Virus record (IMG/VR): IMGVR_UViG_2531839622_000012
Direction: 5' to 3' (one strand)
Length of the DNA: 4,891 nucleotides
From: a virus
Taxonomy: Duplodnaviria > Heunggongvirae > Uroviricota > Caudoviricetes
Made by a program: the position numbers. Each line of letters starts with the position of its first letter. The first letter of the stretch is position 1. Positions 1-4,891 of this stretch are shown one piece after another.

Positions 1-3000
1 TTGATCGCGTCCGCCGCTACGTTGCTGGCCCCCTTCTGAAGCTCTTTCAGAGAAAGTCCCTGCTGCTTCGGCATAAAATAACCATAATTTTTCGATATCT
101 CTGCAAATTTGCTGCGATCCCTGACCTGAGCGATAGCCTTATCAACGGGTATCGCCAGCACGGTTTGATCATCAGGGTGCGCACTGCCGTATTCTGTTAC
201 AGGTTTATGCGCGGTGGAGCCATCGCTGTATGTGAGATCAAGGCCAATAAGTACGTACCCTTCCTGCTGCGCTGGTACGATACTGCCAATCCTGGCCTCT
301 TTTATCGTTTTGTCCCCGGTTGAATCAGGCATGCCAATACGCTGTTGTAGTTCCGGGGCAAACACGCCGGAAAGCACATCGAGATTTTCCGGGGTATTCA
401 GCGAATCGATCGCCATGTCCGGCTTATCACCAAAGATTTTTTGCAGGTTGATCACGGCCTGACCCGCTTTCGCTGCATAGCCTTCGTTTGACATAAGAAT
501 TAATGGATGTCCCTTTGGCAGCTGCCCGAACAGACGCGTTGCAGCCTCCTGATCGCCAGCCTCAATTGCTTTTCCAAGCGCTTCCATTAGTGGCTGGCTA
601 TGGGCAATCATATCGTTATACTCAAGCCGTCGCTGGTTGTATTTCTGCAACTGGAGTCGCTGCTGCTCCATACCCAGTGACGCATTCCGGTAATTCTGGT
701 TAGCGTTAAACTCCCTCTCCTTCAGTGCATAATTACGGTCGTCAACTTTGGCTCTGTAATCAAAGTTCCGCTGATCAACGTTTTTATTATGTTCAAACTG
801 AGACTGCGCAAACTCAAAATCGCGCTCGTTATTTTTCTGTTGCCGGGCAAGCTGTGCTTCACGCAGACCAAGCTCCTTACGACGGGTCATTGCCTGGTCA
901 ACGGTGCTGAATCCGGCAAGTAACCCCTGTGCAAATCCGCTCATTCACCACTCCTTAAAACAAAGAACCAGCAATGCCGCCAATTACTGCTCCAGCAACA
1001 GCACCAACAGGACCACCAACGGATGCGCCAATAGCCGCCCCCGTACCAATGCCCGTACCGATATTCTGCTTGTTCTGCGCTTTCTGTTGCGCCGCCATCT
1101 GTTTGTTCGCAGCCTCAATTTCTTCACGTCGTCTGTCTGCGTCACTTATTCCCTGTAATGCCTCACGCCGCGACTGATTTGCAATATCCAGTAAACCGTA
1201 TCCCATATTGCCCCCTTACGCTGCCACCAGTTGGCCGCCAACACTCAGTTTCTGTCTTGCCGGTGCAGAAGCCCCCGTCAGAATATTCATCTGGCGATCC
1301 TGTTCGGCTTCACGGATACCATTTTTCGCGCCAGCAATTGCCAGGGCATTACGTAACCCCAGCGTATTACTGTCGGGATTATCCGGGCGGTTTACCCCGT
1401 ATCTCGCCATCTGGTTATCCTGCGCCATCTGCGCTGTACGGAGACTGGAAGTGGCAAGGCCTCCCACCCGTGCAAGCTGTGCATTCATCAGACTGTTGTT
1501 CTCCCCAAGGTCAGCCAGCCTTGCCACGCGGGGCAAATATCTGGTTCGCCAGTCGTCGTATTGTTGGCGTGTCAGCGCTGCTGACGTCTGCCAGTCACCC
1601 TGTGGGCGGTCTGCTCCTGAATAACCAGCCCTTGCGAGAGTTTCGTATTTGCCATACTCCATAATTACAGTCTCCAGTTCTGAGCCTGATGCTGAATGGC
1701 ATTAGCGCCGGTGCCAGGTGTTTTAGCACCGCCACTTCCTCCGCTACCGCCAGCCTTATGCATCGCATATGCACCTGCCGCACCCAGACCAGCGCCAACA
1801 AGAGAGGCTCGCCCCTGCTGTTTCGTAAACGCCGCCTGTGCATCCGATTTAGCTTTTGCCAGACTGCTGTCTGCCAGAGAGTTAAAACTCTGTAACGCAT
1901 CCGCCTTCTGACCAGAACCGAGAGCAGCAACATCCTGTAGCCCGGCAACATACTTATCTGCCTGCGATACCTGCCCCCGTGTGGTTGTGTCAATCTGCCC
2001 GGTTACCTGGTCACTCTGGTTCGCATTCATTACCGCATTAAAACGACCACTGGATGGGTCAACGCCGGACTGAGCAAGATTACCCGCAAGCTCCTTCCGT
2101 GCTTCGCCAAACTGTTTCTGATACCCCAGATTTGTGGTGCCAGCAATATTGTCGTACTGCTGCTCACTGTTCAGGTCATCGACCTTTTCCATGAAGTTAT
2201 CTTCAGCCGGGCGGAGGATATTTTTGTAATCCTGCCACCCTTTCCAGGCCACTTCTTCCTGTGCTATTTGCGCTGCTGTTGGTTTTACTTTGGTATCACC
2301 ACCGCCTTTACTTCCACCCATAATGGCCCCCTGGATAACAAAAAACCCTGCCGGAGCAGGGTCAGAATGTGAATTACAATGTTGGTTTAAACACAATGAT
2401 GAAAACTGTAGCAGTCAGACCGCTATCCTGAACACCATGAAGCCATCCTCATCATCCGGCATTCGCTCAAAGCCCAGTCGTTTTCCCAGCCGGATAAATC
2501 CCCGCCTTGCCGTATGGAACTCAGCCCAGCGTCCGCCAGCCAGATGGGTTAATGTCTTCACCTCCGGCAGGTAACGCTCAACGCTGTTACTCCCCGTACA
2601 CACGCCCAGCAACACCAGAACATAAGGGATACCATCAGCACTGAGCACAGAACGCAGCACCAAAAAGCCATCAGGTGCCTCAAAACAAAACGCCTGCTTT
2701 TTAAGGCAGGCGTCTTTAACTTCATTCATAAATTCAGGGTTGCGGGAATTTCTCACAACACGCTGCATATACCAGAGAATTTTATCGTTCATTCTCTCAC
2801 CTGAAACGGGTGCCATATCGGCTGAACCTCAGCAACCAGTTGACGGGGACTCTCGTCCCCGTCGCGGTTTTCCTACTGCTTACACTGTAAGAACGCCGCA
2901 AACTCCGCTCCCCACAAATTCAGCCGGAACTCACACAGTGAACCGTGCAACATCCAGATGGTGAAGATAACCGTCATGCAAATTGTGACGGTGATAAGCG

Positions 3001-4891
3001 ATTTTTGCGACATAGCGCTTGACTCCTTTTACAGAGAGGCGCTAACCTTCTACTTGCTTAAGGTACGAAGTGTTAGGGCCTCGGGTTAACGTTAAGTTGA
3101 CTCGGGGCCTTTCCACATCAGGCCTTCAGGTTCACCCTCCAGCCATCAGCCGAAAGGCACCCACGCATAATTTACGGTTTTTGCCCTGTACGGGCAATAA
3201 AAAACCCGCCATCACAGCGGGTAGTAAACGGTTACCGGATACAGGTCAGAATTTCAGGCCAATGCCAGCAGTAACGCCACTCGTGCGCCAGTCGCCAGAG
3301 CCGAAACCTTCGTAAGCCACATCCAGTGTAACACTCTCATTCAGGTTAAACTGTGCACCTGCAGCCCACGCAAGGGAGGTTTTTTTCGTGCTGTTGCTTT
3401 CAGAAAATCCGCCACTACTGTTAATATTGTCCTTAATTTTCAGGTCAGCGCTAACTTTAGCAACGCCCATCCCTGCCATCGCATATAAACTCATGTACTG
3501 ATTAACCCGCCATGAAGGCCCCGCTAACAGACTCCAGTAATTCGCCCTGATATCCGTTCTGGCAGAAGCTGCCGGATTCTTAATCTTCCTGGTATGATCG
3601 GCTGACTGCACATCAATAAATGTCTGTGAGTTAGTGAGAGAACGCGTCCATGTAAAAGAGGTGATAACGCCAAAATCATCCGTTATCTCGTAGCGATACC
3701 TGATATTAATGCCCTGTGGATTTTTATCCTTGCCTTCATATCCACTGACCCGACCATCTGTATATTCGCCCAATGAAGAAAAGTAGTTTCTGTTGACGAA
3801 ATGACTGAAAGTCTCCCTGTTATGAGCAGTCGCATCCTTTACAAAATCCTTCAGTCCCGGAAACTGAAAGTGCGCATACCCCAGAGAAATTGTATGGTTT
3901 CCTTCTGCTGCATGTGCAGATAAATTTACACAGGCAATCCCGGAGATTGCACACACAACCAGTGTTGCTATACTCTTCATTTAAGATATCCTGTATTCAG
4001 ATAACACGCTAAACTTTTTAATAATACATCTTTTTAGACATTTTAAATGAATATTAAAGACTCGCTTCAACTAATCATATACTGATGTATTAATAACCAA
4101 GACCTTATCTATATACGGCTTTCGAATATCCCATGTTGCACCGCCGGAATAATGCTCACAGGAATATATTTTATTTCCTGTAGCACCAGTGGATGTGGTA
4201 TAAATCGGTCGATCATAAGGAGTTCTTTTCCAGTTATAATACCCGACCAGTGCAGGCATGATTGCGCATGGATATCCAAGGTCCTTTTCAAATTTGATAT
4301 CAACAGGTATTAACTTCGCGTCAAGCAGCATCATTTCGCCATGATAAATCATCTCACCGTCCGGGTTATACATGGCGATACCATACTCAGAAGGTGGAGT
4401 AACCATATTCGCGAAAGCATAAACCGTCGTAACACCAGGGTTCGTTCCCCTGACAATTACATGAAGCCTTAGTGCATGATATCCATCAATCTGTTCATGC
4501 GTGTACATGACATCGGCCTTCTTCTCTGTTCTGATAAAGAAAAAACAACTTTTGCCTGACGGGATTGATGTTTTAAAAAAAGACTTTTCAGTCGCCGGTA
4601 TGGTGCCTTTGTTGATCAGACACTGCGGCGTAAAACCTGGACTTATCCATACGCTGCCATCCGGCTTCATAATGCTCAAACCATACATGACACTTATCCC
4701 CAGAATGTATAAATATAAGATCCCATACCCTGCTCAAGATTCGACCACGTCACCGTATTGCCATTAATGGTTATCTTCGGTACTTTCCGATCCGCAAATA
4801 CATTATTCCAGGGAAATAAACGTAAGCGTACAGCCTGAACCGTCTGGTCAGAATCTGACGAATTAGACAAAGTGGTGTCCACCAAATAAGT

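Follow-up and report, generated by a model that had tools for sequence, protein, structure and literature searches.

The hok locus

The window analysed here, a stretch of 4,891 nucleotides (nt) from a virus of the Caudoviricetes (IMG/VR record IMGVR_UViG_2531839622_000012), carries a toxin gene of the Hok/Gef family on its minus strand. The gene is an open reading frame (ORF) of 46 codons (2873-3013) with an ATG start and the product MSQKSLITVTICMTVIFTIWMLHGSLCEFRLNLWGAEFAAFLQCKQ, and its assignment draws on Pfam and PHROG profiles, on substitution ratios and on identical peptides in the databases. It occupies a gap of 429 nt between its upstream neighbour lom (the Ail/Lom gene, 3246-3980, minus strand; Pfam PF06316, 110 bits) and the next minus-strand ORF (2415-2816), a homologue of gene L0129 of phage 933W. 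The ORF is listed only when the minimum ORF length is set below 60 amino acids (aa), the default. Its Shine-Dalgarno (SD) sequence AAGGAG, read directly from the DNA (3028-3023), is followed by a 9-nt spacer, tcaagcgct (3022-3014), and the ATG (3013-3011). In the predicted fold of the full-length mRNA the SD is partly sequestered by CTCT (3036-3033), and AGCGC (3043-3039) pairs with GCGCT (3018-3014). Within the peptide, SLCEFR lies at residues 25-30 and EFAAF at residues 37-41, and Kyte-Doolittle hydropathy (15-residue window) reaches its maximum of 2.25 over residues 5-20, which is consistent with an N-terminal transmembrane helix. The first-pass annotation, which had proposed this ORF with its SD and spacer, an N-terminal helix and an SLCE-x-R / E-x-AAF core, is borne out on each of these.

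The region is 100% identical to Shiga toxin (Stx) 2a phages such as PA2, VT2phi_272 and phi346, and 99.9% identical to 933W and VT2-Sakai (Sp5); the window is thus part of a Stx phage of the 933W/Sp5/PA2 type. The ORF had also been described as unannotated. That is correct for the old GenBank records of 933W, where the interval between lom and L0129 is left as a gap, and of VT2-Sakai, which gives just two features in this region, the hok ORF not being one of them. It is incorrect for RefSeq, with its PGAP annotation, and for several phage records, in which the identical product appears as WP_000078907.1 ('Hok/Gef family protein'), YP_009180960.1 ('MokW-like host killing') and BAT32301.1 ('small toxic polypeptide'). 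Since it is routinely annotated outside the original 933W and VT2-Sakai records, the ORF is no discovery: the gene is already known from PGAP annotation, from the PHROGs family list, from a catalogue of Hok diversity and from reported toxicity. The sole aspect that is possibly new is its leaderless regulation, that is, regulation without mok, the leader frame on which translation of the plasmid R1 hok depends.

Family membership and toxicity

A profile search against Hok/Gef models had been set beforehand as a test of the family assignment. The peptide matches Pfam HOK_GEF (PF01848) with 33.2 bits (E=4e-8), above the curated gathering score of 22 bits, residues 8-44 aligning to profile positions 6-42 of 42, and it matches PHROG 251 ('MokW-like host killing') from end to end with 85.8 bits (E=2.8e-24). 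These matches are not due to chance. Seven positions reported to be conserved in more than 80% of Hok peptides (M1, C16, T18, L30, C31, E32 and E41 in R1 numbering) are all present, as M1, C12, T14, L26, C27, E28 and E37. The NCBIfam models for individual Hok proteins are not reached: the HokA equivalog NF007290, although the best NCBIfam match, scores 38.4 bits against a cut-off of 89, and the Hok subfamily NF007279 scores 22.7 bits against a cut-off of 73, so that the peptide is a family member but no orthologue of a named Hok. Its identity is highest to a HokA-like sequence (41%), followed by HokE (36%), HokD, HokW and PndA (33% each), Hok of R1 and HokC/Gef (28%), HokB (26%) and SrnB (22%). 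ORF 2873-3013 is a genuine membrane toxin gene of the Hok/Gef family.

Growth arrest on induced expression had been proposed as a further test, and toxicity has been reported for the identical peptide in a preprint. As 72_1589, it belongs to the 'high-abundance' Hok cluster 72 of Escalera-Maurer et al. (bioRxiv 10.1101/2025.08.07.668861), who cloned it under an arabinose promoter (LRP157). Only three of their 45 constructs (19_179, 60_1482 and 69_1540) were non-toxic, placing 72_1589 among the 42 toxic ones. Mok, Sok and mRNA elements were expressly outside their analysis.

Conservation and selection

Searching with the protein gave 56 relatives, in E. coli, Shigella and Salmonella, designated Hok/Gef wherever the source gives a name. 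Most full-length relatives are exactly 46 aa long, down to 59% identity. Across 23 distinct coding sequences the median ratio of non-synonymous to synonymous substitution rates (dN/dS) is 0.20, and several alleles are separated from the window by 3-8 synonymous changes and by none that is non-synonymous. The dN/dS of about 0.2 and the synonymous-only differences between alleles indicate that the frame is under purifying selection; conservation of the reading frame in homologous loci, which the first-pass annotation had made a point on which its proposal could fail, is therefore confirmed.

The unit is also widespread. The 357-nt segment taken here as the hok transcript (see below) occurs, at a coverage of at least 80%, in 1670 of 5426 complete E. 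coli genomes (31%) and in up to 8 places per genome, with a Hok/Gef coding sequence in every one of the matches sampled. A hok gene of the enterobacterial type (76-100% identity) was also seen under the names of unrelated taxa, in a Xanthomonas pisi contig of 857 bp (L007 among the fetched loci, which are numbered with the prefix L) that codes in addition for a Lom fragment, in a metagenome-assembled genome of the Planococcaceae (L008) and in a 226-kb contig of Vagococcus sp. (L010). These three are probably contaminant or mislabelled contigs.

A second hok module in 933W and Sp5

The first assumption was that the ORF is the hokW-sokW module of Sp5/933W. This module has been characterised in Sp5, where HokW has 51 aa and the effect of hokW-sokW was to promote the release of phage, not defence (Takada et al. 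2021, PMC8621323). The two lie in the same phage, and the PHROG family carries the 'MokW-like' name under which some records list the present ORF, but the assumption was dropped and hardly a trace of doubt is left that the genes are different. In 933W (AF125520), hokW/mokW/sokW is located at 58460-58734 (1553-1827 of fetched locus L005), on the opposite strand and about 13 kb from the present locus at 45428-45856. HokW (MKQQKAM...) and the present peptide share 13 of 35 residues (37% over 35 aa) and fall in different 60% clusters, 35 and 72 respectively (bioRxiv 10.1101/2025.08.07.668861). The hokW primers of Takada et al. were not found in the loci fetched around the present region.

With hokW/mokW/sokW some 13 kb away in the same phage, Stx2 phages of the 933W/Sp5 type hold two distinct hok modules, of which hokW-sokW alone has been studied. 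For PA2, with its 100% match to the window, parts 1-48000 and 48750-54550 of the record contained no hokW sequence. The arms of the hokW-sokW deletion made by Takada et al. match hokW only (PMC8621323), so the second module would still be present in their mutant, and the published lysis-timing and phage-release phenotypes would have been measured with it in place.

Predicted RNA elements of the hok unit

The terminator scan placed an intrinsic terminator downstream of lom (3204-3222, minus strand), a stem-loop followed by TTTTTATT, which separates lom from the hok unit. Next to it a hok promoter is predicted (3169-3197, minus strand), with a -35 TTGCCC (3197-3192), a 17-nt spacer, a -10 TAAATT (3174-3169) and a start at G3162. 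The motifs TTGCC[CG] and TA[AG]ATT and the start motif recur, with the same hexamer spacing, in homologues whose upstream DNA is unrelated. A consensus promoter scan of 2700-3300 reported no promoter; the hok promoter fits 8 of 12 consensus positions, the scanner's threshold being 9 of 12. Both this promoter and that of the antisense RNA described below were found by hand reading and conservation, not by the scan.

The predicted full-length hok mRNA is about 357 nt long (2806-3162, minus strand, the 3' end being approximate), as judged from folding, Rfam and BLAST. It folds with a minimum free energy of -155.4 kcal/mol, against -119.3 +/- 5.4 kcal/mol for shuffled sequences (z = -6.7). BLAST matches in E. 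coli genomes span positions 1-355 of the 357-nt query, and the Rfam sok/hok-leader model RF01794 can be aligned from end to end with 3000-3162 of the hok strand at 35.6 bits, under its gathering score of 59. Further Rfam matches, to BSnc120, sX5 and the GlmZ 3' end, were treated as chance matches to terminator-like hairpins.

The mRNA begins with a predicted tac element, GGGTGCCTTTCGGCTGA (3146-3162, minus strand; 94% column identity in 20 homologues), and near its other end lies a complementary fbi element, TCAGCCGATATGGCACCC (2808-2825, minus strand). The tac-fbi helix (3162-3146 with 2825-2808) is found both in the minimum-free-energy fold and in the RNAalifold consensus of the 20 homologues, and its duplex energy is between -22 and -33 kcal/mol in all homologue variants except L065 (-11.9 kcal/mol). 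Compensatory changes occur in L012 (CGACC/GGTCG) and L013 (CGAT/ATCG). They were assessed by pairwise duplex folding, because MAFFT misaligned the 5' ends of these two sequences and the RNAalifold table therefore under-reports the covariation. When the 3' tail is removed up to the hairpin at 2864-2841, the predicted fold changes and tac (3162-3149) pairs instead with 3116-3104. This alternative partner is a ucb-like box, GGAAAGGCCCC (3104-3116, minus strand), within a block (3119-3104) of 97% column identity. Two relatives are damaged in these elements. In L065 tac is degenerate (GGACACC) and the antisense -10 is altered as well; in L030 (IMGVR_UViG_2529293141_000015) unrelated sequence replaces both promoter and tac.

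The hairpin at which the truncated mRNA ends is a stable stem-loop, GACGGGGAC-GAGA-GTCCCCGTC (2841-2864, minus strand). Two pairs at its apex covary, with compensatory exchanges AU<->GC or CG in 9-10 of the 20 sequences, the RNAalifold consensus retains it together with the long-range helix, and on these folds it is likely to protect the 3' end of a processed, active mRNA. The same hairpin also scores as an intrinsic terminator on the plus strand, where it is followed by CGGTTTTCCT, and it may act both ways, stopping antisense read-through into hok. Some 85-115 nt past fbi, inside the ORF of the L0129 homologue, there is another strong terminator-like hairpin (2694-2724, minus strand; GCCTGC-cttaaaaa-GCAGGC, then GTTTTGTTTTG), to which the weak Rfam matches to the GlmZ 3' end (minus strand) and BSnc120 (plus strand) belong. 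The primary hok transcript could in fact end there.

On the plus strand, within the hok leader, a promoter for a Sok-like RNA is predicted at 3019-3048, with a -35 TTGACT (3019-3024), an 18-nt spacer and a -10 TAACCT (3043-3048). Although missed by the scan, it is well conserved, the -10 being TAACCT in 19 of 20 homologues and the -35 always TTGNNN, and the same TAACC -10 is found in the hokW leader, in sequence complementary to probe YO-597. The RNA itself would be about 58 nt long (3055-3112, plus strand, both ends inferred), made up of a 5' tail (3055-3074) and, at 3075-3111, a stem-loop with CUUU at its end. The tail of about 20 nt, with 75% column identity, is among the least conserved blocks of the unit. 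The hairpin, for which RNAalifold yields a consensus structure, folds with -26.5 kcal/mol on the plus strand and -11.9 kcal/mol on the sense strand, where G-U pairs turn into C-A mismatches. The position of the RNA corresponds to that of the annotated sokW of 933W. An antisense promoter, a variable tail and a strand-asymmetric hairpin together form the signature to be expected of a Sok-like RNA of about 58 nt, the existence of which is predicted here.

With these elements, ORF 2873-3013 is very probably the toxin gene of a self-contained type I toxin-antitoxin module of the hok/sok type. Its product falls in Hok cluster 72, and the Stx phage, of the 933W/Sp5/PA2 type, would carry the module as a moron with lom on one side and the L0129 homologue on the other. 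From the promoter just past the lom terminator, transcription would begin at GGGUGCC and yield an mRNA of about 357 nt. In the full-length RNA, according to the predicted fold and its conservation and covariation, tac would be paired with fbi and the hok SD and start codon held in local helices, for which reason the message should be stable but poorly translated. Slow 3' trimming to the GACGGGGAC hairpin is predicted to strip off fbi, upon which tac would pair with ucb, the leader refold and the ribosome-binding site become more open. By homology with R1 hok/sok and hokW-sokW, a short, unstable Sok-like RNA from the TTGACT/TAACCT promoter would pair with 3055-3112 and silence the message, probably through RNase III cleavage and a restored, SD-sequestering fold. 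Once the antisense supply stops, the 46-aa peptide would enter the inner membrane by its N-terminal helix and the membrane potential would collapse, a membrane mechanism assumed from the family.

Absence of mok and proposed direct translation

There is no mok ORF in the window. Stop codons occur 18 nt (hok frame), 31 nt (R1-mok frame) and 47 nt (third frame) upstream of the hok ATG, and between these three stops and hok no ATG, GTG, TTG or near-cognate start is present. Among 54 unique homologues, about 18 have an upstream start in the R1-mok frame, but the positions are scattered (-28, -46, -76, -100, -103 and -130), so no leader ORF is conserved. An 8-codon ORF further upstream (3118-3092, minus strand; ATG TGG AAA GGC CCC GAG TCA ACT TAA), which overlaps the ucb box, was considered as a substitute for mok and rejected, as about 80 nt lie between its end and hok, and L012 and L013 lack its ATG. 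In some homologues (L011, L031, L037 and L051) a 1-nt insertion joins the frame opened by this ATG to hok, in the R1-mok frame. A full-text literature search for mok-less hok loci gave nothing relevant, which is weak evidence of absence.

In the absence of a leader ORF, the AAGGAG site of hok itself must serve directly for translation. The predicted accessibility of this site is 0.38 in the full-length mRNA, 0.54 in the truncated form and 0.37 in the truncated form with the Sok target blocked, and about 15 of 20 homologues change in the same direction. As far as such folding models go, the pattern is compatible with direct, mok-independent control.

Several points weigh against the reading of the locus as a functional module. 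The accessibility values are of thermodynamic origin only and differ by modest amounts. The Sok-like transcript, the two promoters and every RNA end are predicted; neither promoter reaches the threshold of the consensus scanner, the RF01794 match stays below its gathering score, the putative antisense terminator has a short U tract only, and the 3' end of the mRNA is uncertain, as no terminator follows fbi. The evidence for toxicity is a preprint in which a heterologous SD and promoter were used. Finally, since translation of Mok is mandatory for Hok synthesis in R1, the native mRNA of a mok-less locus could give little Hok or none.

This last point leads to the view that the locus is a regulatory relic, toxic when expression is forced but left untranslated on its native mRNA by the loss of mok, comparable to several hok loci inactivated on the E. 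coli K-12 chromosome. Such a view would account for the lack of a mok ORF in the window and of a conserved mok start in the family, and decayed relatives do exist in L065 and L030. It is nevertheless improbable. A dN/dS of 0.2, alleles with up to eight synonymous and no non-synonymous changes, and a length of 46 codons kept across genera are hard to explain if the frame is never translated; hok has a consensus SD at optimal spacing; three different phage contexts have kept the whole RNA scaffold together with the antisense promoter; and the unit is found in nearly a third of complete E. coli genomes.

If the module is functional, as preferred here, the absence of mok can be given a more specific meaning, which is put forward tentatively and with rather less than even confidence. 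Cluster-72 hok would be a mok-independent variant, in which GAGGCC, the ribosome-binding site of mok in R1, is kept only as part of the RNA switch and as antisense target, hok is translated from its own SD, and the Sok-like RNA represses at a distance, either through decay by RNase III or because the SD-sequestering fold is formed again, with no leader ORF to block; in Stx-phage lysis and release it would be redundant with hokW-sokW. As mok is held to be obligatory in current models, a widespread cluster that lacks it is a natural test case of hok translation and of Sok repression in the absence of such coupling.

Genomic context and possible role

The homologous loci fetched number 87. In 42 of them lom is located upstream of hok, and 38 of these also have the L0129 homologue downstream; loci of this arrangement carry identical-peptide alleles. 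The cargo position beside lom, as the first-pass annotation had it, is correct. Sampled alleles of about 76% identity (L070, L009) follow a P2-like tail gene, with an ogr-like regulator gene adjoining in L070, and in L051, which has the identical peptide, hok comes after a tail-fibre gene. Judging by these sampled contexts, the hok module recurs as a moron where phage tail regions end. Seven IMG/VR provirus contigs (L056, L061, L064, L076, L081, L084 and L085) end exactly 3 nt past the hok stop, which makes hok the final gene before the predicted border of the prophage.

The position as a moron, next to lom or following tail genes, would also suit a device that serves primarily against other phages, by abortive infection or superinfection exclusion, and is given to the host for that purpose rather than for addiction or as a lysis helper. 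This is unlikely, if less so than a relic, because hok genes are not enriched near defence systems (bioRxiv 10.1101/2025.08.07.668861), and the only prophage hok studied, hokW-sokW of the same phage, promoted phage release. The most likely role of the module would be killing, either post-segregational or linked to the prophage, or else a contribution to lysis after induction, as shown for the paralogous hokW-sokW. If the two modules are redundant, the published two-fold phenotype of the hokW-sokW deletion would underestimate the contribution of Hok to the output of Stx2 phages.

Two observations concern other genes of the window. The annotated start of the L0129 homologue, ATG 2816, lies inside the fbi element, and since the match to PHROG 610 begins only at residue 9, the real start is probably ATG 2792, which follows GGTGAGAG. 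At 955-1206 (minus strand) there is a gene for a protein of 83 aa with a C-terminal glycine-zipper and sub-threshold matches to Pfam Gly-zipper_YMGG and Bacteriocin_IIc; RefSeq and phage records label it 'bacteriocin'.

Comparison with known systems

One of the closest known systems is hokW-mokW-sokW, which shares the phage genome and the module architecture. When the leaders are aligned, the two have in common a GGGTGC 5' end, the Sok hairpin, the antisense -10 region GAGGC..TAACC, the segment AAGGAG..GCTATG and a 3' GCACCC. They differ in that an in-frame upstream mokW extends hokW in 933W, while the present locus has no such start, in a 20-nt insertion in sokW, and in the peptides, which are 33-37% identical. 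Moreover, hokW-sokW has been tested experimentally, whereas the present locus is known from sequence.

With hok/sok (parB) of plasmid R1 the present locus shares a small peptide with an N-terminal transmembrane helix and the SLCE.R...E.AAF core, the AAGGAG 9 nt from the ATG, the alternative pairings tac/fbi and tac/ucb, an anti-SD CCUCU upstream of the hok SD, a protective 3' hairpin, and an antisense RNA gene in the leader, here predicted, with a 5' tail and hairpin. The peptides have 28% identity and differ in length, 46 aa here and 52 aa in R1, and the present one has a C-terminal cysteine (QCKQ) and no AYES motif. R1 hok/sok is plasmid-borne and the present locus phage-borne. A further difference lies in the leader: translation of R1 hok depends on mok, which is lacking here, so that the antisense target covers no start codon. 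Among the characterised chromosomal proteins, HokA comes nearest to the present peptide, though by its NF007290 score (38.4 against 89 bits) the peptide is no orthologue of it.

An antisense target of this kind has a possible functional analogy in tisB/istR-1. There, in the standby-site model reportedly due to Darfeuille et al. in 2007, the antisense RNA is said to act on the leader upstream of the toxin's ribosome-binding site. As in the present locus, the target would lie upstream of that site without overlapping it, and no leader ORF would be involved, although the two systems have no relationship in sequence or family.

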